Virus record (IMG/VR): IMGVR_UViG_2541047715_000004
Length of the DNA: 64,000 nucleotides
Strand: one strand, 5' to 3'
Origin: a virus
Lineage: Duplodnaviria > Heunggongvirae > Uroviricota > Caudoviricetes
In this document: positions 13,090 to 52,644 of the stretch, piece after piece
Layout: the number at the start of each line of letters is the position of its first letter
How positions within the stretch are numbered: position 1 is the first letter of the stretch
Made by a program: the position numbers and the translations under genes
The notes under the pieces: model-generated
Seen by the model: only the letters and a program-made list of their open reading frames with translations
What the model was told of the DNA's origin: nothing
Databases searched by the model: none

Positions 13090-15405
13090 ATGATAAGCAT
13101 CGTAAAACGTAACGGCCAAACAGAGCCGTTATCCGAAGAAAAATACAACCGCGTCGTAATGTATGGCGTAGAAGGCATTCGTGGTGTAAGCGCATCCGCT
13201 GTAGCAATGGGAGCTGCGGCCAGCATTTTTGATGGGATTACCACCAGCCAGTTGCATGAGGCTTTGGTTAAATCTGCCGCTGATTTGATCTCACCAGAAG
13301 CACCAAATTACTCACAGGTGGCTGCCCGCCTGAACATTTTTAAAATCCGCAAAGATGCCTTCGGTCGTTACGACTATCCGAACTTCTACCAACACATTGT
13401 CAAGAACGTTAACAAGGGCGTTTATGACAAGGATTTGCTGACACATTATTCGTTTGAAGAGATCGAAGAACTCGGCAATTACATTAAGCCGAAACGTGAC
13501 GATCTTTTTGGCTATGCAGCTACGGTGCAGTTGCAAAGCAAATACCTCGTTCAAAACCGTGTTACTGGTGAGATTCACGAAGGCCCGCAACATATCTATA
13601 TGCTGGTGGGCATGTGTCTGTTCCAGAATTGGGAAGACGACTGCGCGGGCAAAACACGTATGGAGATGGTCAAAGGTTTCTATGACGTTACAAGTACGTT
13701 CAAACTGTCTCTGCCCACACCAATCATGGCTGGCGTCCGTACTCCAACCCGTCAGTTCTCCAGTTGTGTGCTGATTGAGTCTGGCGATAGTCTGAAAGGG
13801 ATTAGTGCAGCTTCAGCCGCAATTATCGACTACGTTTCACGTCGTGCTGGAATTGGTATTGGTTTTGGCCGTATCCGTGCGCTGGGCAGTGAGATCCGCA
13901 ATGGTGAAGCCACCCATACCGGAGTTATTCCATTCCTGAAGCATTTCCAGACTGCTGTTAAATCTTGCTCGCAAGGTGGTGTTCGTGGTGGCGCAGCAAC
14001 AGCGTTTTACCCGATCTGGCATCTTGAAGTTGAAAGTCTGCTGGTGGTGAAAAATAACCGTGGTATTGATGAAAACCGCGTTCGCCATCTTGATTACGGC
14101 GTCATGAGTAACCGTCTAATGTACCGTCGACTCGTCAGAAGCGAGAACATCACTCTGTTCAGCCCGCATGATGTGCCTGATATGTACGAAGCCTTCTTCA
14201 CAGACCAGGATCTGTTTGAAAAGCTGTACCATAAATACGAAGCCGATGATTCAATTCGCAAGAAGTCAGTACCTGCCATTGAGCTGTTCTCATCTCTGAT
14301 GCAGGAACGAGCGTCCACGGGCCGAATTTATATTGCGAACGTCGATCATATTAATGAGCATGGCGCTTTCATTCCTGCTCTTGCACCTGTCCGCCAGTCA
14401 AACCTGTGCATGGAGATCACTCTACCCACTCGTCCACTGGCATTTACCGACGACCCGAACGGTGAGATCGCGCTATGCACTTTATCCGCTTTTAACCTCG
14501 GAGCCATCCGTTCACTGGAGTCTCTTAAAGAGGTGGCGTTCTATGCCGTTGCTGCACTGGATTCGTTACTGGATTATCAAGACTATCCGATGGAGGCAGC
14601 CGAAGTGCCTGCCAAAGCTCGTCGTAGCTTGGGAATTGGTGTAACCAACTTTGCTTATTACCTGGCAAAGAATGGCGTTCGTTATTCTGATACCGCTGGC
14701 AATAAACTGGTGCATGAAACGTTCGAAGCTATCCAGTATTACCTTCTTGATGCCAGCTGCCGACTTGCTGAAGCAAAAGGTGAGTGTGACTGGTTTGAGC
14801 AGACCAAGTACGCAATTGGTCAGTTGCCGATCGACCATTACCGTTCTTCATTAGACGAAAGTGGCGAAACCAACTTTGAGTTAAAGATGCCGTGGGAAGA
14901 ACTGCGTGAACGTATTGCAAAATACGGCCTTCGCAACTCCACACTGACGGCACAAATGCCATGCGAGACTTCCAGCCAGATCACTAATTCCACCAACGGC
15001 ATCGAACCGCCTCGTGGCCCGGTGTCGGTGAAATCTTCTAAGGACGGCATCGTTAAGATGGTCGTGCCTGAGTTTGAAAAACTGAAGGAACAGTATGAAT
15101 ACCTGTGGGATATGCCGGACAACCGCGGCTATCTGACAAAGGTGGCGATCATCCAGAAGTTCTTTGACCAGGCTATTTCAGCCAATACCAACTATGACCC
15201 TTCTCGCTTTGAAGGCGATAAAGTCCCAATGATGACGCTACTGTCAGATTTGCTTCTCGCCTACAAGATGGGAGTTAAAACGCTTTACTACCACAACACC
15301 AGAGATGGGGCAGGAAAGCGTGATGACGACGAACCGCAGAATCCACTGACGCAAGCTGTAGCCGTCGAGCCAGAAGATGAGTGCGACGGAGCCTGCAAAA
15401 TCTGA
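13090..15405 (+). CDS. nrdA: ribonucleotide reductase class Ia large subunit
   Basis: Collinear with E. coli NrdA along its length, e.g. TPTRQFSSCVLIE, CSQGGVRGGAAT, NLCMEI, C-terminal CDGACKI. Confidence 0.92.
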   Translation: MISIVKRNGQTEPLSEEKYNRVVMYGVEGIRGVSASAVAMGAAASIFDGITTSQLHEALVKSAADLISPEAPNYSQVAARLNIFKIRKDAFGRYDYPNFYQHIVKNVNKGVYDKDLLTHYSFEEIEELGNYIKPKRDDLFGYAATVQLQSKYLVQNRVTGEIHEGPQHIYMLVGMCLFQNWEDDCAGKTRMEMVKGFYDVTSTFKLSLPTPIMAGVRTPTRQFSSCVLIESGDSLKGISAASAAIIDYVSRRAGIGIGFGRIRALGSEIRNGEATHTGVIPFLKHFQTAVKSCSQGGVRGGAATAFYPIWHLEVESLLVVKNNRGIDENRVRHLDYGVMSNRLMYRRLVRSENITLFSPHDVPDMYEAFFTDQDLFEKLYHKYEADDSIRKKSVPAIELFSSLMQERASTGRIYIANVDHINEHGAFIPALAPVRQSNLCMEITLPTRPLAFTDDPNGEIALCTLSAFNLGAIRSLESLKEVAFYAVAALDSLLDYQDYPMEAAEVPAKARRSLGIGVTNFAYYLAKNGVRYSDTAGNKLVHETFEAIQYYLLDASCRLAEAKGECDWFEQTKYAIGQLPIDHYRSSLDESGETNFELKMPWEELRERIAKYGLRNSTLTAQMPCETSSQITNSTNGIEPPRGPVSVKSSKDGIVKMVVPEFEKLKEQYEYLWDMPDNRGYLTKVAIIQKFFDQAISANTNYDPSRFEGDKVPMMTLLSDLLLAYKMGVKTLYYHNTRDGAGKRDDDEPQNPLTQAVAVEPEDECDGACKI

Positions 15406-15410
15406 CATAT

Positions 15411-15442
15411 GGTGGGGGATATCCCCACCTTCTCTTTGATTT
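15411..15442 (+). terminator. rho-independent terminator
   Basis: Hairpin ggtggggg-atat-ccccacc followed by T-rich run. Confidence 0.5.
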
Positions 15443-15511
15443 GTAAGCCTTGTTTAAACACATAAGATAACAACTTGTTTAAACGCACCAAAAAAGAAAA
15501 AGGAAAAACAC

Positions 15512-16654
15512 ATGTCATATTCAACGTTCCGTTTGGGTGCTAATGATGCAACCAAAGAGCCTATGTTCCTCGGACAATCTGTCAACGTGGCACGTTACGA
15601 TCAGCAAAAATACCGTGATTTTGAAAAGTTGATTGAACGTCAATTGTCTTTCTTCTGGCGGCCGGAAGAAGTTGATATTTCGAGTGATCGTATCGACTTC
15701 AACACGAAGCTGCGGGACCACGAACGTCACATTTTTCTGAGCAATCTCCGTTATCAAACGTTACTCGATTCAGTTCAGGGACGTAGCCCAAATGCAACGC
15801 TTCTGCCGCTTATCTCTATTCCTGAACTGGAAACGTGGGTTGAAACATGGTCTTTCTCTGAGACTATCCATAGCCGCAGCTACACCCACATTATTCGTGG
15901 CATGGTGGACGATCCGAGTATTGTTTTTGACGGTATTGTTACGGATGAAGAAATCATCAACCGAGCGATCAGTATCTCTGCTGAATATGACAGGCTTTAT
16001 GGGATGACCTGCGAGCGCCAGTCGTTAGGTGAGAAAGAGTTTGAACGTCTGTACGTAAATGAATATGGCTGGGAGCCATACCCTTTGCACCGTCAGCTTT
16101 TCCGCACGTTGGTGTCCATTAATGCGCTTGAGGCGATCCGTTTCTATGTAAGTTTTGCATGTACGTTTGCCTTTGGCGAACGGAAGTTGCTTGAGGGTAA
16201 CACCAAAATTATGCGCTTTATTGCCCGTGATGAAGCTCTGCATTGCGAAGGAACTGAACGCATGATCCGCTTCATGCGTACCGGTCGCGAAGGCTTATTG
16301 TGGAAAGAGATTGCTGCTGATGAAGAAAACGTCATTTACGACACCATGAAATCAGTCGCCGAACAAGAAATGAACTGGGCAGACTATCTCTTCAAAGACG
16401 GTTCGATGATTGGTTTAAACGCGGATATTCTGAAGACCTATGTAAAATACCGCACCAATCTGGCTATGAATCGTCTTGGCCTGAAGGCTTTATTTCCAGA
16501 AGTTACCACAGATCCGCTGGTCTGGATGAACAAGTGGTTGTTAACCGACACACTGCAAATTGCACCACAAGAGGCAGAGCAAAGCACATATCTGGTAGGT
16601 CAGATCGATTCTACCGTGGATAAGGCTTCTCTAAGCCAGTTTGCAGACCTGTAA
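15512..16654 (+). CDS. nrdB: ribonucleotide reductase class Ia small subunit
   Basis: Strong similarity to E. coli NrdB ([43 protein letters not shown]). Confidence 0.92.
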
Positions 16655-16731
16655 ACCGATACAAAGCATTATGTGGCCTGGCAACGCTGGGCCACAATGG
16701 ATCACAAGAATTAAGAAGGAACAAAACTAGT

Positions 16732-17601
16732 ATGAACTTTACCAAACTGACTGACCACCTGAAACTTGCCACCGATCGACTCATTGGATTTAAGCCAGAA
16801 CCATATGAGTTGCATGAAGGCCATGGTGTAGCCACTGAAAGTATTTACAAGATGGTCGATCAGTTTCATGAACTCTTCCAGCATCCGAGACGCGTTATGC
16901 CGACACCAGAGCTGCTTCGTCTCCGTGCAAGCCTGATTCATGAAGAAGCTGTAGTGGAAGGTATTCCAGCCGCAATGAATGGGGATATTGAGCAACTGCT
17001 GGATGCAATGGCCGACTTTTTATACGTTGGTGTTGGTACGATGGTCGCCATCAAAGGTGGTATTTCTACCGGCATGACCTATTACACGCAGGAACAGAGC
17101 ATTGATCGCTTTATGCAGACAATTTTTGTGCCCGGTAACACTGTTTTCGATGATATGGCAATGCCATTTCAGGAAGCTCGTGAGGCGTCATGTATGCTCG
17201 AAGAGCTGGCAGATAAACTTGAGAACAAGACTGTTAAGGATTCTGAGCTGATTCAGGAACTGCGCCGTGTCATGAACAAAATCTATGTGGCGTGCATGAT
17301 GACCTATCGACTGGCTGATTTCCTCGGTATCAATGTAGTCGAGCTGGTTGGCGAAATTCATCGGTCTAACATGACAAAATTATGGCCTGCTGATGTAGAG
17401 GAACGTCGCCAGGCTGTGGCCAACTGCAAATACGACTCTTCAGACCTGGGATTTCGCCATGCTGATGGTACCGATAAGATGATCGGTTTTCGAATTTCCG
17501 ATGGAAAGATTCTGAAGTCTCCAACCTATAGTGATGTCGATTTATCCTCCTTTGTTGAGCAAGCTAAAGCCTCAGCAATGTACGGAATGATCAAAAAATA
17601 A
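16732..17601 (+). CDS. putative MazG-like all-alpha NTP pyrophosphohydrolase
   Basis: Two EExxE...D-like acidic helix motifs (LIHEEAVVEG...DIEQLLDAMAD; QEAREASCMLEELADKLE). Confidence 0.35.
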   Translation: MNFTKLTDHLKLATDRLIGFKPEPYELHEGHGVATESIYKMVDQFHELFQHPRRVMPTPELLRLRASLIHEEAVVEGIPAAMNGDIEQLLDAMADFLYVGVGTMVAIKGGISTGMTYYTQEQSIDRFMQTIFVPGNTVFDDMAMPFQEAREASCMLEELADKLENKTVKDSELIQELRRVMNKIYVACMMTYRLADFLGINVVELVGEIHRSNMTKLWPADVEERRQAVANCKYDSSDLGFRHADGTDKMIGFRISDGKILKSPTYSDVDLSSFVEQAKASAMYGMIKK

Positions 17602-17669
17602 TTGTAGGTAGTTATCTATCTGTGTATATTTAACATGCGTAATAAAACTCTGGAATGACTATTCGTTTT

Positions 17670-17696
17670 GGTGGCCTATGGCCACCATTTTTTTAT
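17670..17696 (+). terminator. rho-independent terminator
   Basis: Hairpin ggtggcc-tat-ggccacc followed by TTTTTTT. Confidence 0.65.
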
Positions 17697-17771
17697 CTGT
17701 CTGGTCTTGTTCTCTCAATGAATGTAAACTCACACGATGAATAAGTAATTACTTATATTTGTGAGGTTTTT

Positions 17772-18875
17772 GTGTCACTCCTTTTGAATCGAGAGCATAC
17801 GAACGGTCAGGTAACAAACGCATCGTATGCAAAAGTTATTGAGACGGTGCTTAAAAGCGGCGTGCAGGCTGATGATCGCACAGGCACTGGTACTTTAAGC
17901 ACCTGCTACGTTCCCTCTTACTACATGCTTACTGGTGGGACTGTGCCGCTTATTTCTGGAAAGGCGGTAAATCTTAAGCCACTACTTGTCGAACTTGAGT
18001 GGTATCTGAAAGGCACGGGCAACATCCAATTTCTCAAGGATAACGGCGTTAAGATTTGGGATGCATGGGCCGATGAGAATGGCGATTTGGGGCCGGTTTA
18101 CGGTAAGCAGTGGCGTCGATGGGAAGATACCCGCATCGTGAGCCATAGTGAATATCTGAGCAAGATCGCTACTTTCCGTGAACGCGGGTACAAAGTCGAG
18201 GGATACCTGGGTATCAGTGAAGATCGCGTAGTGCTGTCCCGTGAAATCGATCAGCTACAGCGTATTGTCGATACACTGCGCACGAACCCTACCGATCGTC
18301 GCATCATGCTTAACGCATGGAACGTAGGCGAGCTTGAGGATATGAAACTGCCACCTTGCCACTTTGTCTTCTCTTTGTGGAGTCGTGAGCTGGATTTTGA
18401 AACCCGTTTAACGATGGCAACTGACATTGGTCTTCAACACAGTCGCCTCGGTTACGAGTCTATCTACACCAAGATGCTATACGATCTGGAGATGGACGGC
18501 AGTGTTACTGAAGCTGAACTGGATGAACTTGGAATCCCCAAACGCATCCTCAACTCCTGCCTCGTACAGCGTAGCGTAGACACTTTTGTTGGTATGCCAT
18601 TCAATATTGCTGGCTATGGCATTCTCACTCATTTTCTCGCGAAGATTACGGGTCACATGGCCGGTGCATTTGTGCATTTTGGCTTTGACGTGCATTTGTA
18701 CAACAACCACATGGAAGGTGTGTGTGAGCTAATGAAACGACAGGCTCCAGAGCATTCAGATCCGGTCGTTATTTTCCCTCATGAATGGTCAGAGTTGGAT
18801 GATTTCAAATGGGACGAGGTTTTAATTCTTGGCTATGACCCTCTACCGTGGATCAAGGTTCCAGTGGCGGTGTGA
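17772..18875 (+). CDS. thyA: thymidylate synthase homolog (ThyA fold, long variant, GTG start)
   Basis: ThyA motifs DRTGTGT, LxELxWYLKG, IWDAWA, GPVYGKQWRRW, PPCHFVF, QRSVDTFVGMPFNIAGY; about 60 extra residues between the PPCH and QRS motifs. Confidence 0.75.
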   Translation: MSLLLNREHTNGQVTNASYAKVIETVLKSGVQADDRTGTGTLSTCYVPSYYMLTGGTVPLISGKAVNLKPLLVELEWYLKGTGNIQFLKDNGVKIWDAWADENGDLGPVYGKQWRRWEDTRIVSHSEYLSKIATFRERGYKVEGYLGISEDRVVLSREIDQLQRIVDTLRTNPTDRRIMLNAWNVGELEDMKLPPCHFVFSLWSRELDFETRLTMATDIGLQHSRLGYESIYTKMLYDLEMDGSVTEAELDELGIPKRILNSCLVQRSVDTFVGMPFNIAGYGILTHFLAKITGHMAGAFVHFGFDVHLYNNHMEGVCELMKRQAPEHSDPVVIFPHEWSELDDFKWDEVLILGYDPLPWIKVPVAV

Positions 18876-18876
18876 T

Positions 18877-19290
18877 ATGGCAAGAGGTATGTATGTCTTA
18901 TGCGAAATTGAAGGTGTGCTGGCAAATGCCAGCCATCGTAAATCAGTATCTGACGCGGATGCAGGCCAGCTCATTGCCGGTGATGAACTCATTTTCCCCA
19001 CCAGCCGTATGTTGCGTGGTTTTGCTCGCTCAGGGGCTGAAGTGGTGCTTATCAGTAGCCGCTCTGAAACTCTTGAAGCGCCAACTAAACGATGGCTGAA
19101 AGATTTTGGCGTTGATTATGACTGGCTTCATCTTGTACCGAATGGCACCAGTTATGAGAAGCATATTAAGCGCACATTAGCGGAGCATAAAGGCGATCTG
19201 CTTATCGCTGCGCTGGTGCACGATCCTCGACTCCGTGCCGCTTTAGCCGACTCTCACCATCGACCGGTCATCTATGAGGTGAGCAAATGA
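18877..19290 (+). CDS. hypothetical protein, possibly degenerate HAD-like
   Basis: Start taken at ATG 18877 just after thyA stop; N-terminal CEIEGVLA resembles HAD motif I with Asp residues replaced. Confidence 0.35.
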   Translation: MARGMYVLCEIEGVLANASHRKSVSDADAGQLIAGDELIFPTSRMLRGFARSGAEVVLISSRSETLEAPTKRWLKDFGVDYDWLHLVPNGTSYEKHIKRTLAEHKGDLLIAALVHDPRLRAALADSHHRPVIYEVSK

Positions 19291-19763
19291 AGATGATCGC
19301 TGCTGTTGGCCGTAACTATGAGATCGGCATAGCGAATGAACTCCCCTGGCGTTGTTCTACCGATCTGAAGCTATTTAAGAGACTCACCAAAAACGCCACT
19401 GTCGTTATGGGGCGTAAAACGATGGAAAGTCTCAAACGCCCTCTTCCAGAGCGTCATAACCTCGTTTTGACGCGCTCTCATGGCTTTGTACCAAATGGAT
19501 TCTACCCTGCTGGTGTGGATGATGTGTTGCGATTACCAGAGCCTGTGTGGGTGATTGGCGGGGAACAAATTTACTCGCTATTCATGCCGCATGTTGAAGA
19601 GATTTGGCTCTCCCACATCGGCGTTGATGTACCAAACGCCGATGCATTCTTCCCGGCAAGCATGATGCGTAACTTAGGCTTTGTGCCTGTTGAAACAGCT
19701 TATACCCAACGAGCCAGCGAGGAAGAGCCTGGCTTTTCGCAGATCGTATACAGAAGGTCGTAA
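19287..19763 (+). CDS. folA: dihydrofolate reductase
   Basis: MIAAVGRNYEIGIANELPWR...VVMGRKT pattern typical of DHFR; follows thyA homolog. Confidence 0.8.
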   Translation: MKMIAAVGRNYEIGIANELPWRCSTDLKLFKRLTKNATVVMGRKTMESLKRPLPERHNLVLTRSHGFVPNGFYPAGVDDVLRLPEPVWVIGGEQIYSLFMPHVEEIWLSHIGVDVPNADAFFPASMMRNLGFVPVETAYTQRASEEEPGFSQIVYRRS

Positions 19764-20407
19764 TGGATTACCGGATTGGGATCACTGGTGCTCAGGGCAG
19801 TGGGAAAACAACCCTGGCAAAATATATCGACAAACATTACGGAATCCCTTACGTGGATGCTGGTGTCGGAAGTTTGATGAGCCGCCTCGGTGTTCGAGTA
19901 GGTGAGTCTATGCCTCTATATGAGCGGCTTCAGATTCAAATGGAAATAGCAAAGCATATAGAGCTACTTACGCGTGGTGTTGAAGGCTTTGTTATCGATC
20001 GCACACCTGCTGATGTTATGGCCTACACGTTGGATTTGGTCGGCCATACCAATGAAGATCGATGTATTGAGTTAGCCCTCGATATCGAAAAGTTTTGCCA
20101 CAAAACTGCTATTTCAAACTTTAACGCCATTGCTGGCTTACGCCCGGGAGTCGCTCTCTCAGAGCGAGATTACTTGCGATCACAACGAGCATCATTAGAC
20201 CGTCTGTATGTCGCTCGTATTGATGCGTTGATGTGCGGGGAACTGACAAAAATTCACCTGCATCCGCAAAGGGGGGATCTGCAAACCTTCGTCGTTTCCA
20301 ACCGATATCGCACGGTTGAAGCAAGAGCCAGATCAGTGATGAGAATGCTAGATAACGCTGTAGAAAAGATAGAAAACCGGTTCTGTGGCCGAGTGACCGT
20401 TCATTAG
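19763..20407 (+). CDS. P-loop nucleotide/nucleoside kinase
   Basis: Walker A GAQGSGKTT near N-terminus, small size; exact substrate unknown. Confidence 0.55.
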   Translation: MDYRIGITGAQGSGKTTLAKYIDKHYGIPYVDAGVGSLMSRLGVRVGESMPLYERLQIQMEIAKHIELLTRGVEGFVIDRTPADVMAYTLDLVGHTNEDRCIELALDIEKFCHKTAISNFNAIAGLRPGVALSERDYLRSQRASLDRLYVARIDALMCGELTKIHLHPQRGDLQTFVVSNRYRTVEARARSVMRMLDNAVEKIENRFCGRVTVH

Positions 20408-20468
20408 AAATTGTTCGCCTCTTCGACATTGCGACAATAAAACTCTCAAAATGGGTTAAGGATAAAAA

Positions 20469-20888
20469 ATGTTTAGTGAAATGTTGCTTGAAGATGAACT
20501 GGATCGGAAAACAACAGAGGCTTTGATTCGTGTAGCGGACGAACATTCCCGGTCGCTTATGAGCGATCGAGAGGCTCGTCTGGCTATTCGTGCCATATTC
20601 GAAACTGCGCAGGGGCTTGTTGGCGCACAAGTAGGTGAAGCCATTAACATCGCCATGTCTCAGTTCAGTGAAGACAGTAAAAAGCCTCTGTTTCCTATGC
20701 ATTTGATGCTGGCTGGTGGCACGGTGCTTTATATCTCTGTTTGTCTGGATAGCAACCAAATCAATATTCTCAACACTGCGTCAGGTAAGTGGAAAGATCC
20801 GATTGTCTGTGAAACCAGTGAAGAAACTTTGAAAAAAGCGGCTCAATTTGTACGTAGCGCACTACTTAAGGGCGCTAAGAAGTTGTAA
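20469..20888 (+). CDS. hypothetical protein
   Basis: 139-aa ORF with RBS. Confidence 0.45.
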   Translation: MFSEMLLEDELDRKTTEALIRVADEHSRSLMSDREARLAIRAIFETAQGLVGAQVGEAINIAMSQFSEDSKKPLFPMHLMLAGGTVLYISVCLDSNQINILNTASGKWKDPIVCETSEETLKKAAQFVRSALLKGAKKL

Positions 20889-49664: not shown

Positions 49665-49746
49665 AAACCTCTTTCCTTAGTGCCTTTTGTATGTTATTTG
49701 GCTATTATAATAAGTAAGTGATTACTTAGTGGATTGTAGCAATAAA

Positions 49747-50427
49747 ATGGATGTAAAAATCACGATTTTGCAGGTTGATGTTGCCAACCTTCGCCCGAAT
49801 ACCTGGAACACCAATTCGGTTGGTGCGCAGAATTTTGAAAAACTGAAAGGTTCTATCGAAAAATTGGGCTTTTTTAAGCCAATTTTGGCTCGTGAACTTG
49901 AAGATGGATTTTTTGAAATCCTAGGCGGCGAACATCGCTGGCGTGCTGCTATTGAGCAAGGAATTTCAACGGTTCCGGTGCTTTCTGTGGGCAAAATTAG
50001 CGATGTCGTAGCTAAACAGATGTCACTGGTGGACAACGAGCGATACGGTGAAGACGACCAAATCGCATTGCAACGCTTCATTGAAGAAATTCAGTCAGAA
50101 CTTGACTATCAACTGTCTGAAATCGCCCCGTATGACGACGAAATCTCGATGGTTTTAGCAAAAGAGGCGGCAATCGACCTTGAAGCACTGGAGGCGTTGT
50201 CTCGTGGTAGTGATGAGCCTGTCGATACCGACAAACGAGAGAAAACCGAACGTGTGGGGGCGGAACATCAGACCATGCGCTTCAAAGTAACTTTCGATGC
50301 GTCAGATCGTGTTGCAGAAACCATAAAAAACATCATCAAAGAGCAGGCTATTAACACCGGTAATGAAATGGAGAACGCTGGTGAGGCTCTGGTGTGGCTG
50401 GTCGACTACTACAAGGAGCGTATGTAA
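49747..50427 (+). CDS. ParB/Srx-fold nuclease-domain protein
   Basis: ILGGEHRWRAA matches ParB box II type motif; start taken at MDVKITIL. Confidence 0.55.
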   Translation: MDVKITILQVDVANLRPNTWNTNSVGAQNFEKLKGSIEKLGFFKPILARELEDGFFEILGGEHRWRAAIEQGISTVPVLSVGKISDVVAKQMSLVDNERYGEDDQIALQRFIEEIQSELDYQLSEIAPYDDEISMVLAKEAAIDLEALEALSRGSDEPVDTDKREKTERVGAEHQTMRFKVTFDASDRVAETIKNIIKEQAINTGNEMENAGEALVWLVDYYKERM

Positions 50428-51095
50428 TGACCAAAAAGTTTGAAATCGTATATCGCGACCCGGCAGATCTTATTCCCTATGAGATGAATGCCAAAAAGCA
50501 TGATGAACAGCAGATCCGAGATCTGGCCGCAGCCATTAAAAAGCGCGGATTTGACCAGCCAATTACGGTCGATAAGAACGACGTAATTATTACTGGCCAC
50601 GGCCGCCGTGAGGCTGCAATTTTTGCTGGACTTGAGCGCGTGCCGGTTATTGTTCGCGATGATCTGAGTGATGACGAGGTACGTGCAAAGCGCCTTGAAG
50701 ATAACCGACTTGCCAGCATTGATTACGATGCAATTAAGCTACAGAAAGAGCTTGAGTCGCTTGTTCTGGACGATATCGAGGTTTTCGGCTTCGAAGAGCG
50801 TGAGTTGAATGTTCTCGTTGGCAGTATGACAGAAGAAATGGACACCGACTCGCTAGTTATCGATCTTGGCGAAGAAACTAAACGACAGAAGGATGAACAC
50901 ACCGAGATCAGTCGTGAAGTTGCAGCGGAAGAAGTACGTGTTGTCGACGTATTGGGCTTTAAAACGCTCCCTGCTGGCTCTGCCATTGTTGTTGGTGATT
51001 TGCTTGCCCATATGGAAGAAATGACGGGAGAAAGCGGGGTAGACGCATTTGTGGCATATGCGGAGAAGATCTCTTCCGGGGAGATGGCTGCATGA
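50427..51095 (+). CDS. second ParB/Srx-fold domain protein
   Basis: IITGHGRREAA motif; start taken at MTKKFEIVY, overlapping upstream stop. Confidence 0.55.
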   Translation: MTKKFEIVYRDPADLIPYEMNAKKHDEQQIRDLAAAIKKRGFDQPITVDKNDVIITGHGRREAAIFAGLERVPVIVRDDLSDDEVRAKRLEDNRLASIDYDAIKLQKELESLVLDDIEVFGFEERELNVLVGSMTEEMDTDSLVIDLGEETKRQKDEHTEISREVAAEEVRVVDVLGFKTLPAGSAIVVGDLLAHMEEMTGESGVDAFVAYAEKISSGEMAA

Positions 51096-51757
51096 GCAAA
51101 TACATCATCAACGTATCGTTTCAGACACGCGTAAATAAAACCACGCGCACGTTGGAAATCGCTGAGTCGTTCGGGCTTGGCCTGGACGAAAAAGAGTGGA
51201 CGCTTTACGACAATCTGGAGCTGGAAGTGAAGCAGGGCGATGTGGTGTACATCACCGGCCAATCCGGTTCCGGCAAATCCGTTGTGCTGCGCGAGTTGCA
51301 ACGACAGATGAAGGATGAAGGGCTGTCTGTAGCCTCCATCGATGATTTTACCTTCGATAATGAGGTTAACGTCATCGATCAGTTGGGCAAAACGACCAGT
51401 GATGCGCTTGGGTTGTTATCTATGGCTGGTCTGAACGATGCATATCTGTTTGTTCGCAAGCCTTCTGAAATGTCAGACGGCCAGAAATATCGTCTCAAGA
51501 TTGCCAAACTGATTGAGTCAGGCGCTAAAGTATGGGCTGCTGACGAGTTCGGCGCTGTTCTCGACCGTGTAACCGCTCAGGTTGTGGCGTCTAACCTCCA
51601 GCGTGCCGCTCGAAAGGTTGGTGCGACGGTAATGGTGGCGACGACTCACGAAGACCTGAAGAACGCGCTGCGCCCTGATATGCAGATCACCAAGCACTAC
51701 AAAGAACGCGTGAAGGTGGAATATCACAATGGTAGTCATGATGAGGTCCATTCATGA
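51092..51757 (+). CDS. small ABC-type P-loop ATPase
   Basis: Walker A GQSGSGKS, signature-like SDGQKYRL, Walker B VWAADEF, H-loop-like ATTHED. Confidence 0.55.
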   Translation: MSKYIINVSFQTRVNKTTRTLEIAESFGLGLDEKEWTLYDNLELEVKQGDVVYITGQSGSGKSVVLRELQRQMKDEGLSVASIDDFTFDNEVNVIDQLGKTTSDALGLLSMAGLNDAYLFVRKPSEMSDGQKYRLKIAKLIESGAKVWAADEFGAVLDRVTAQVVASNLQRAARKVGATVMVATTHEDLKNALRPDMQITKHYKERVKVEYHNGSHDEVHS

Positions 51758-52644
51758 CGGACATCATCATTAAACGCTACCGCCCTGAAGAGTTTCCGCG
51801 TCATCTGGACTTTCTGGAGCGAATGACTGTTACAAAGGGAACTGTAGAGGACTGGCACGCTCTTAAATCGCTTCACTACAAAACAGACGGCAAACCTTTC
51901 GCGCCAACATACTATCGCTGCGAACTGGATGACCGTCTGGTGGGCGTCGTGGTTATGGCTTACCCGAAACTTCTGCTGGCACCTCGCCATCGCATGTTTC
52001 CTAAGTTGAAACCAACTACCAATACCACCGTGGCTAACCAGTACTGGGGTCGGTACGTGAATAACAACTTTGCGGTGATCAGCCGCTCAGTTGTGGATAC
52101 TCAGTACCGTGGCGTAGGCGTCTCTTATCGAATGATTAACCTGGTTAGCAGGATGCATGACCGGCCAATCATTGAGATCCAGTCATCGATGAGCAAATAC
52201 AATCCCTTCGCCATGAAAGCAGGGTTTAAGTTCATCCGCCCTGAGCGACCGAAGAGCTATGAAAGTGCACTGCGTGTATTCCAGCGCCATTTCCGTTCCG
52301 ACCCGGGTGATAACGAGGCGATCGTCAAAGAGTTGTTCGCAATGAGCGAGTCTCGTCGTCGCCGTGCACTGCGTGATCTGGTGGCGGACTACCACAAGAA
52401 CAGTTCCCTGGCAAAAGCTGGGCGGAATCGTGGCACGACGATTCAGGACATTGCCGACAGTCTGGTGGACGAGGCCAGCATTGTGAAGCTGCTCAAGGAC
52501 ATTCACAACCTGAGCTTTACGTCTCCGTTGTATGGTGTGTACCGAAACCCTGACTTTGGCCGTCGACTGCCTGACACGCTGCCACTGCTGGCATTCGACA
52601 AACAACCTTTGGATAAACCGTTAGAAATTGCTTTACCGGCATAA
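51754..52644 (+). CDS. hypothetical protein, possibly GNAT-fold
   Basis: YRGVGVSYRM resembles acetyl-CoA binding motif R/QxxGxG/A; weak. Confidence 0.3.
   Translation: MTDIIIKRYRPEEFPRHLDFLERMTVTKGTVEDWHALKSLHYKTDGKPFAPTYYRCELDDRLVGVVVMAYPKLLLAPRHRMFPKLKPTTNTTVANQYWGRYVNNNFAVISRSVVDTQYRGVGVSYRMINLVSRMHDRPIIEIQSSMSKYNPFAMKAGFKFIRPERPKSYESALRVFQRHFRSDPGDNEAIVKELFAMSESRRRRALRDLVADYHKNSSLAKAGRNRGTTIQDIADSLVDEASIVKLLKDIHNLSFTSPLYGVYRNPDFGRRLPDTLPLLAFDKQPLDKPLEIALPA

Follow-up and report, generated by a model that had tools for sequence, protein, structure and literature searches.

Thymidylate synthase (ThyA) of Escherichia coli (EC 2.1.1.45; PDB 2TSC, 1TYS, and others) belongs to a superfamily that also contains the dCMP hydroxymethylases and the phage dUMP hydroxymethylases, such as SPO1 gp29 and M6 gp58. 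An Asn at ThyA position 177 directs the enzyme to dUMP rather than dCMP, and an Asp there switches it to dCMP (PMC8670742). At 351–383 aa, the known dUMP hydroxymethylases exceed E. coli ThyA (264 aa) in length, and hmU phages carry a dTTPase, dTMPase, and dNMP kinase set (PMC8989533). The co-occurrence of thymidylate synthase and dihydrofolate reductase (DHFR) in phages is a recognized functional link (PMC7824862), and expression of DfrA51 of Salmonella phage SSU5 (AFL47010.1) makes E. coli resistant to trimethoprim (PMC12217456).

We analyzed a window of 64,000 nucleotides of Caudoviricetes DNA (the whole stretch of IMG/VR record IMGVR_UViG_2541047715_000004 considered here), in which an earlier note had drawn attention to a long ThyA homolog near a small P-loop kinase as a lead toward thymidine hypermodification. 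Our analysis indicates that the homolog is very probably an ordinary, dTMP-producing ThyA within a thymidine-supply unit.

Genomic context: a nucleotide-supply block

The window represents an SSU5-like phage-plasmid, being 99.2% identical to Escherichia phage Cyrano and 76.6% identical to SSU5; thyA and DHFR genes are annotated in both of these records, and annotation of the same genes in near-identical public phage records rules out a chance pattern. Three genes at 13,090–17,601, namely nrdA (13,090–15,405), nrdB (15,512–16,654), and a gene for a MazG-like/PRA-PH nucleotide pyrophosphohydrolase (16,732–17,601), all on the plus strand, form a single nucleotide-supply block with the thyA module that follows. 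Between the MazG-like gene and thyA lies a GC hairpin that, with the T-run after it, resembles a terminator by consensus match (17,669–17,687, plus strand; 8-bp stem with six GC pairs, TTTTTTTATC tail); this putative terminator would bound the thyA module on its upstream side.

The thyA gene (17,772–18,875, plus strand) encodes a protein of 367 aa and starts with a GTG codon, 5 nt downstream of a Shine-Dalgarno-like GAGG (17,763–17,766, plus strand); in SSU5, thyA begins at the corresponding position and uses another start codon (Leu as residue 1). The genes of the module are tightly packed. A 1-nt gap separates the thyA stop codon from the ATG of a 137-aa HAD-like ORF (18,877–19,290), the stop codon of which overlaps the start of the DHFR gene, dfrA51 (19,287–19,763), in the sequence ATGA; the DHFR stop codon in turn overlaps the start of the P-loop kinase gene (19,763–20,407) in the sequence TAATG. 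These four genes, all on the plus strand, probably constitute one operon and would be co-transcribed. The DHFR and kinase genes reported in the earlier note are real, but neither directly adjoins thyA as had been supposed: the HAD-like ORF, which went unmentioned, intervenes, and the kinase gene adjoins that of DHFR. The order thyA, X, DHFR, AAA_28 kinase was also found on a metagenome contig with a 48%-identical ThyA, and a member of the HAD-like family is syntenic with thyA even at this level of identity.

Thymidylate synthase: fold and active site

The thyA product matches Pfam family Thymidylat_synt (PF00303) with 263.5 bits (E 2e-78; cutoff 24.3), and with 219 bits it passes the cutoff (108.35) of the NCBIfam equivalog TIGR03284. 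It falls short of the narrower ThyA equivalogs of NCBIfam (NF002497: 261.5 bits, cutoff 327), probably as a result of its insertions and divergence. Identity to E. coli ThyA is 44% across all 264 aligned columns, and the AF2 model (pLDDT 94.2) is matched by Foldseek to E. coli ThyA with E 9e-33 and a TM of 0.94 normalized to target length. The ThyA fold with a catalytic PPCH cysteine (L-P-P-C-H at residues 193–197) is thus borne out, as is the claim that the protein exceeds a typical ThyA in length (367 against 264 aa in E. coli).

Alignment against ThyA and two dUMP hydroxymethylases, along the lines that the earlier note had proposed, reveals canonical ThyA residues. Of 27 E. coli ThyA positions compared, 25 carry the same residue in the window ThyA; these cover all catalytic, dUMP-binding, and folate-binding residues in the comparison (R21, K48, E58, I79, W80, W83, Y94, R126, R127, C146, H147, Q165, R166, S167, D169, G173, F176, N177, H207, Y209, and V262-A263); the differing positions are H51N and the conservative L172V. 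The C-terminus, PVAV, keeps the PVA[IV] end, with Val as the last residue where E. coli has Ile. The catalytic Cys196-His197 pair (E. coli C146-H147), with codons at 18,357–18,362 (plus strand), is invariant in 62 aligned sequences, and R36, R267, S268, R176, R177, and N278 are, like this pair, invariant in both a 30-sequence and the 62-sequence alignment. The first five of these residues correspond to the E. coli phosphate-binding R21, R166, S167, R126′, and R127′, and N278 to the uracil-specifying Asn177. The folate-binding and hydride-transfer set is also present, comprising I95, W96, W99, E74, Y110, D270, and F277 (E. coli I79, W80, W83, E58, Y94, D169, and F176, respectively) and the PVAV end. 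Most of the ThyA residues checked are invariant in the 62-sequence alignment.

These residues bear on whether the enzyme might act on dCMP as a methylase or hydroxymethylase, giving DNA with 5-methyl- or 5-hydroxymethyl-cytosine. Membership of the ThyA/dCMP-hydroxymethylase superfamily would allow such a role; however, N278, the equivalent of E. coli N177, is an Asn throughout the clade, whereas it is Asp that switches the specificity to dCMP (PMC8670742), the likeness to E. coli ThyA extends throughout the protein, and the Cyrano annotation includes neither a glucosyltransferase nor a dCTPase. We regard activity on dCMP as extremely improbable.

Thymidine hypermodification

Under the lead of the earlier note, the ThyA homolog would be a dUMP hydroxymethyltransferase, and the P-loop protein would be a 5-hmdU DNA kinase; the two would initiate thymidine hypermodification of the phage DNA, as in phages M6, ViI, SP10, and PhiW-14. 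The presence of an unusually long ThyA-family gene near a small P-loop kinase is in keeping with this, as is the length of the known hydroxymethylases, and the MazG-like NTP pyrophosphohydrolase and the phosphatase-like ORF nearby provide a superficial echo of the hmU-phage set (PMC8989533). However, the window ThyA has only 19–21% identity to SPO1 gp29 and M6 gp58 (E 0.024 and 2e-4), against the 44% to E. coli ThyA. The two hydroxymethylases share with the window ThyA the superfamily, the catalytic Cys, and the equivalents of E58, Y94, R166-S167, D169, and N177, but they lack W80 and W83, have C-N in place of C-H and N-R-S in place of Q-R-S, and carry a C-terminal extension of ~100 aa where the window ThyA has its PVA[IV] end. 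At each position that sets the hydroxymethylases apart (W80, W83, H147, Q165, F176, and the C-terminal end), the window protein agrees with ThyA. The extra length in the hydroxymethylases is a C-terminal domain, and so is unlike the insertions of the window ThyA, which are placed elsewhere. Under TIGR03284, SPO1 gp29 (58.2 bits) and M6 gp58 (35.9 bits) both fail the cutoff that the window ThyA passes. This residue comparison yields a simple list of sequence checks by which a true ThyA can be told from a dUMP hydroxymethylase.

The neighboring genes were also compared with the hypermodification set. The predicted P-loop kinase (214 aa) has a fold of the deoxynucleoside kinase/thymidylate kinase/NadR type (nucleoside and nucleotide kinases), placing it in the NadR-RNK/deoxynucleoside kinase/thymidylate kinase structural group; with the 5-hmdU DNA kinase of M6 (gp54, 5-HMUDK) it shares only the P-loop (11 of 18 residues, pairwise E 0.004). 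Neither the window nor the complete Cyrano genome gave a tblastn match below E 0.4 to M6 gp51–gp55; at this BLAST-level sensitivity the 5-hmdU DNA kinase query gave E 1.1, and the aGPT-Pplase/AADT, PLP decarboxylase, and radical-SAM queries (gp51, gp52, gp53, and gp55) gave nothing below E 0.87. The Cyrano annotation lists no hypermodification products, and the literature searched on DNA modification in SSU5-like phages contained nothing relevant.

The HAD-like ORF resembles a degenerate form of the 3′-phosphatase domain of T4 Pnkp. It scores 22.8 bits against Pfam HAD_PNKP (cutoff 27.6) and 300 bits against PHROG 5387, a family of unknown function. Its motif I reads C-E-I-E-G-V-L, with Glu in place of the nucleophile Asp, and this Glu is present in 14 of 14 family members; in an alignment of 13 homologs with T4 Pnkp (sequence verified against 1ltq), the segment that holds the motif IV DD pair of T4 is missing. 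The ORF therefore lacks both elements of the HAD-superfamily phosphatase signature, namely a DxDxT motif I, in which Asp is the nucleophile, and the acidic pair of motif IV, and the absence of these catalytic Asp residues also argues against a role in hypermodification.

Together with a DHFR in the same operon, which fits dihydrofolate as the product of the ThyA reaction, these results contain no pointer to thymidine hypermodification by the window genes; the lead is not supported, and we judge it very unlikely to be correct. There is a similarly slight chance that the clade to which this ThyA belongs makes a modified pyrimidine despite its canonical residues. The result is chiefly a negative one: a ThyA of unusual length with a P-loop kinase close by does not suffice for listing an SSU5-like phage-plasmid as a candidate for hypermodification.

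Dihydrofolate reductase, kinase, and the predicted thymidine-supply unit

The window DHFR matches Pfam DHFR_1 with 119 bits and, at 338.2 bits, exceeds the cutoff (322) of the NCBIfam model trim_DfrA51, which assigns it to DfrA51, a trimethoprim-insensitive DHFR type of phage-plasmids. The earlier note had taken the nearby DHFR as an argument for ordinary dTMP synthesis, and rightly so; this gene lies in the same tightly packed unit as thyA. In the reading of thyA as an ordinary thymidylate synthase, ThyA would convert dUMP and 5,10-methylene-tetrahydrofolate to dTMP and dihydrofolate, and the DfrA51-type DHFR would regenerate tetrahydrofolate; the presence of a functional DHFR in the thyA operon fits with dihydrofolate production.

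The kinase would most likely carry thymidine nucleotides, or salvaged deoxynucleosides, toward dTTP. Sequence searches for its substrate against the PDB returned only P-loop matches, with a marginal match to a Mycoplasma deoxynucleoside kinase (E 0.03), and the Pfam thymidylate-kinase model did not match.

DfrA51 is a clinically tracked trimethoprim-resistance determinant, and the probable operon described here couples a ThyA to it. This arrangement speaks for the “resistance gene” being simply the phage’s own folate-recycling enzyme for dTMP synthesis.

Insertions of the viral ThyA

The excess length of the window ThyA over E. coli ThyA is not a single insertion of about 60 aa, as first described, but comprises a 34-aa and a 51-aa insertion, a 15-aa N-terminal extension, and three scattered residues. 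Insertion 1 (34 aa, residues 120–153; 18,129–18,230, plus strand) replaces the loop at E. coli 102–106 and has conserved DTR[IV]V and RGY motifs; together with its flanks, it is predicted by AF2 to form strands 117–124, 141–146, and 152–159 and short helices 125–130 and 132–137 (pLDDT 94–97). Insertion 2 (51 aa, residues 207–257; 18,390–18,542, plus strand) takes the place of the tight turn in the beta-hairpin at E. coli 154–158, and is predicted to form three helices at 209–225, 231–242, and 247–253 (pLDDT 96–98). Its ends are conserved (SRELxxxxR … LDxxxIPxRxL) and its middle is of variable length; R212 and P256 are invariant across 32 diverse members. Both insertions are confidently folded in the AF2 model, and substitution rates indicate that both are under purifying selection, with dN of 0.039 for insertion 1 and 0.154 (~3 times the core) for insertion 2, dS being saturated in each case. 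Based on the alignment and the secondary-structure read-out, the insertion sites are predicted to lie on the surface, clear of the conserved catalytic residues; canonical active-site residues combined with extra length in surface loops form the sequence part of what the earlier note had named as counting against its own lead.

Foldseek searches found no solved ThyA bearing the same insertions, the best PDB hits covering the core only (query-normalized TM 0.68–0.71). No known domain was detected in either insertion by Pfam searches at E up to 10, which yielded only noise for insertion 1 (Sedlin_N, E 0.17) and nothing for insertion 2, and the literature searched on ThyA insertions held nothing relevant. 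The possibility that insertion 2 is an intein or mobile-element remnant was rejected: it is 51 aa long and has no Hint or LAGLIDADG match, and in the clade members that have an intein (P0217 and P0252), the intein sits just before the catalytic Cys, with insertion 2 present separately, after the intein.

Insertion 2 is common to at least 687 clusters (at the 50% identity level). The two insertions mark a large ThyA clade of at least that many clusters, which is mostly viral and counts SPN3US-like and 201phi2-1-type jumbo phages among its members. The insertions are ancient and sit in two loops whose length differs from one ThyA to another, with the catalytic machinery unchanged. Since they lie outside solved structures, this clade may be of interest to structural enzymologists.

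The role of the insertions is probably structural, as an enlarged surface or as an oligomer or partner contact. It is conceivable that, with canonical chemistry, the insertions are a functional docking or oligomerization add-on rather than neutral decoration, linking ThyA with the HAD-like protein, DHFR, and kinase in a complex for dTTP synthesis or shielding the enzyme from a host factor. For T4 thymidylate synthase, it has been proposed that surface inserts make contacts within the T4 dNTP-synthetase complex, and such a function would accord with the predicted folding of both insertions, with purifying selection, with the conservation of R212, P256, and the end motifs in very divergent members, with retention in hundreds of clusters, and with the synteny of the catalytically degenerate HAD-like ORF and thyA in the 48%-identity relative. 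However, clade members from jumbo phages, such as SPN3US, have other neighbors, and the length of insertion 2 ranges from 32 to 68 aa among relatives; this range and its roughly threefold faster evolution than the core fit a loosely constrained surface element. We consider a docking add-on unlikely, and it is a little less likely still that the insertions represent a new kind of docking module in the viral clade, one that in SSU5-like phage-plasmids would bring ThyA, the catalytically dead HAD-like protein, DfrA51, and the kinase together in a channeled dTTP-synthesis complex, or would protect the enzyme from a host factor.

Comparison with known systems

For the kinase, sequence likeness to deoxynucleoside kinases, thymidylate kinase, and NadR ribosylnicotinamide kinase ends at the P-loop, barring the marginal Mycoplasma deoxynucleoside kinase. 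The DfrA51 gene of SSU5 occupies the same place in the same operon as the window DHFR gene; the resistance phenotype was shown for the SSU5 allele, whereas the window allele comes from an E. coli Cyrano-like relative and is likened to DfrA51 by sequence.

E. coli ThyA shares its core fold and its ligand-binding and catalytic residues with the window ThyA, but lacks the 15-aa N-terminal extension and the 34-aa and 51-aa insertions. The ThyAs of jumbo phages (SPN3US-like, Erwinia, and 201phi2-1-type) carry insertions at both of these sites, in which the conserved end motifs recur, and are 37–40% identical to the window ThyA over 95–98% of its length. They differ in insertion length (proteins of 338–471 aa), and neither annotation nor searches placed a DHFR or AAA_28 kinase gene adjacent to the SPN3US ThyA gene. 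BFVD models of this jumbo-type group cover more of the window ThyA than the solved structures do, with query-normalized TM of 0.82 for 201phi2-1 and 0.86 for a 471-aa viral entry.

Gene content and organization of the thyA region

The thyA region is best interpreted as an ordinary dTMP/dTTP-supply module of a temperate phage-plasmid. Across bases 16700-20500, the window shares 99.2% identity with Escherichia phage Cyrano, 98% with three further E. coli phage-plasmid records and 76.6% with Salmonella phage SSU5. These records carry the same genes, annotated there as encoding thymidylate synthase and dihydrofolate reductase; based on this identity and shared annotation, the window belongs to an SSU5-like phage-plasmid. 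The plus strand encodes, in order, nrdA (13090-15405), nrdB (15512-16654), a MazG-like/PRA-PH pyrophosphohydrolase (16732-17601), thyA (17772-18875; 367 aa), a HAD-like ORF (18877-19290; 137 aa), DHFR (19287-19763) and a P-loop kinase (19763-20407), followed by an unknown ORF, a DnaQ-like exonuclease, a second unknown ORF and Dam. The thyA module may be transcribed apart from nrdAB and mazG, as suggested by a terminator-like hairpin and T-run (17669-17687, plus strand) that lie upstream of thyA, within the 170-nt gap that follows the MazG-like gene. Just 1 nt separates the thyA stop from the ATG of the HAD-like ORF, which overlaps DHFR (ATGA), and DHFR in turn overlaps the kinase gene (TAATG). 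A metagenome locus (L010; contig SRR30563939_22134, 6001-11994) keeps thyA, a small ORF, DHFR, an AAA_28 kinase, a small ORF, a DnaQ-like exonuclease and then Dam, despite a ThyA identity of only 48%, and this conserved order from thyA to Dam points to a long-lived module.

Public gene names for this region (17772-20407) are misleading. The Cyrano record (OV696614; CYRAN_72, 73, 75) uses “ThyX” for the ThyA-family gene, “polynucleotide kinase” for the degenerate HAD-like ORF and “ABC transporter ATP-binding protein” for the product that resembles nucleoside/nucleotide kinases. Elsewhere in the window, four plus-strand ORFs directly upstream of the terminase genes (49729-52644) correspond to Cyrano ParB, a ParB-like nuclease domain protein, an “ABC transporter” and an ABC-type ATPase-acetyltransferase fusion.

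DHFR, HAD-like ORF and kinase

Among folate enzymes, ThyA alone oxidizes its cofactor to dihydrofolate. Co-occurrence of TS and DHFR is a recognized functional pairing in phages (PMC7824862). The earlier note had placed DHFR next to thyA; the gene is indeed nearby (19287-19763, plus strand), but the separating ORF (18877-19290) had been overlooked. The encoded protein scores 338 bits against the NCBIfam DfrA51 model, above its curated cutoff of 322 bits. This family was defined on the SSU5 protein, which binds trimethoprim more weakly than FolA and makes E. coli expressing it resistant to trimethoprim (PMC12217456); the SSU5 counterpart is thus a working DHFR. Because the window DHFR passes this cutoff, resistance screens would flag the phage-plasmid, and the flagged trimethoprim-resistance determinant would be part of the phage’s own thymidylate operon.

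The intervening ORF resembles the 3′-phosphatase (HAD) domain of T4 Pnkp, based on PHROG matches, with Pfam HAD_PNKP below cutoff. In all 14 family members the motif I nucleophile Asp is replaced by Glu, and the ORF lacks the acidic pair of motif IV, so canonical phosphatase activity is unlikely; we posit that this protein is probably a pseudo-enzyme. It is syntenic with thyA even in a distant relative (L010, 7136-7576; 25% identity).

The kinase family has an invariant P-loop, Q59, a D79-R80-T81 motif and an Arg-rich lid. Sequence-level matches of the window protein are confined to the P-loop, and the closest structural matches of its AF2 model (pLDDT 87) identify it as a predicted small-molecule nucleoside/nucleotide kinase.

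ThyA and its two insertions

The ThyA-family ORF with a PPCH cysteine described in the earlier note is real: the protein matches Pfam Thymidylat_synt (263.5 bits, E 2e-78) and contains L-P-P-C-H at residues 193-197. The gene starts with GTG at 17772, preceded by GAGG at 5-nt spacing, and the Cyrano and SSU5 annotations place the start at the same position. E. coli ThyA aligns in three HMMER blocks (18-118, 156-203 and 261-367), and the AF2 model has high confidence (pLDDT 94.2), with a core that superposes on E. coli ThyA (TM 0.94). Extra-segment boundaries, taken from a 30-sequence alignment, define a 15-aa N-terminal extension, a 34-aa insertion 1 (residues 120-153) in place of the E. coli 102-106 loop, and a 51-aa insertion 2 (residues 207-257) in place of the tight 154-158 hairpin turn. 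Thus, the single insertion of roughly 60 aa previously proposed is in fact two insertions, and the one noticed earlier is insertion 2, after the PPCH strand.

Insertion 1 with its flanking residues is modeled with high confidence as three strands and two short helices, and insertion 2 as three helices. None of the solved ThyA structures covers the insertions (query-normalized TM 0.68-0.71); predicted viral structures cover more, including 201phi2-1 ThyA (TMq 0.82) and another viral entry (0.86). In the phage collection, the nearest kin beyond the SSU5 group are SPN3US-like, Erwinia and Cronobacter jumbo phages (37-40% identity), the ThyAs of which carry insertions at the same two sites. Among relatives, insertion 2 ranges in length between 32 and 68 aa with its end motifs kept, and R212 and P256 are invariant. 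Against 1.84 billion representatives, an insertion-2 profile matched 687 clusters (50% identity) with an E threshold of 1e-3 and 119 with one of 1e-10, and all eight sampled matches were ThyA-family. Between the window and SSU5 thyA, synonymous sites are saturated and dN is 0.039 for insertion 1, 0.057 for the core and 0.154 for insertion 2; therefore, both insertions are under purifying selection, which is looser on insertion 2. Both sites would lie in surface loops at a distance from the active site, given that E. coli ThyA has loops or turns at these places, that other ThyAs also differ in length there, and that every catalytic residue falls outside the insertions. The role of the two conserved insertions, and of the apparently dead HAD-like partner, is a modest structural question.

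In two closely related ThyAs (P0002 and P0005), the core shares 94% and 89% identity with the window protein but insertion 1 only 53%, with changes clustered in the helical part (residues 124-137; window about 18141-18182), which suggests local hypervariability or recombination. Certain other clade members contain an intein (P0217, 821 aa; P0252, 700 aa) with a Hint domain and, in P0217, also LAGLIDADG; it is inserted immediately before the catalytic Cys, which would therefore be the intein +1 residue, and insertion 2 is separate, further on.

Thymidylate synthase versus hydroxymethylase

The long ThyA and nearby P-loop kinase had raised the possibility of thymidine hypermodification, which requires a 5-hmdU DNA kinase and aGPT-Pplase/AADT, usually accompanied by a PLP enzyme, or radical-SAM or FAD enzymes (PMC5889632; PMC8989533). 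This lead failed every membership test that could be run. The window kinase has only the Walker A loop in common with M6 gp54, a proven 5-HMUDK; neither the window nor the complete Cyrano genome gave a tblastn match below E 0.4 to M6 gp51 to gp55, and the Cyrano annotation lists no hypermodification functions. Partner genes were thus not detected at BLAST-level sensitivity, at which very remote homologs might escape.

Of 27 E. coli ThyA positions mapped onto the window protein, identity is retained at R21, K48, E58, I79, W80, W83, Y94, R126, R127, C146, H147, Q165, R166, S167, D169, G173, F176, N177, H207 and Y209; the terminal P-V-A is also shared, with Val rather than Ile as the last residue, and departures are L172 to Val and H51 to Asn. 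Most mapped positions are invariant across the clade (62-sequence alignment). A dCMP-acting enzyme was rejected, since the protein keeps Asn177, which specifies dUMP rather than dCMP (PMC8670742).

The two best-characterized dUMP hydroxymethyltransferases, SPO1 gp29 and M6 gp58, served as aligned controls. The window protein is 44% identical to E. coli ThyA and 19-21% identical to these enzymes (E 0.024 and 2e-4, respectively). Against the NCBIfam equivalog TIGR03284 (cutoff 108.35 bits), it scores 219 bits, the SPN3US homolog 360 and the metagenomic homolog (L010, 48% identical) 236, versus 58 for SPO1 gp29 and 36 for M6 gp58. At all positions that set the two controls apart from ThyA, the window protein has the ThyA state: it possesses the I-W-D-x-W tryptophans that both lack, Cys-His where they have Cys-Asn, Gln-Arg-Ser where they have Asn-Arg-Ser, and a P-V-A-[IV] carboxy-terminus in contrast to their C-terminal extension of ~100 residues.
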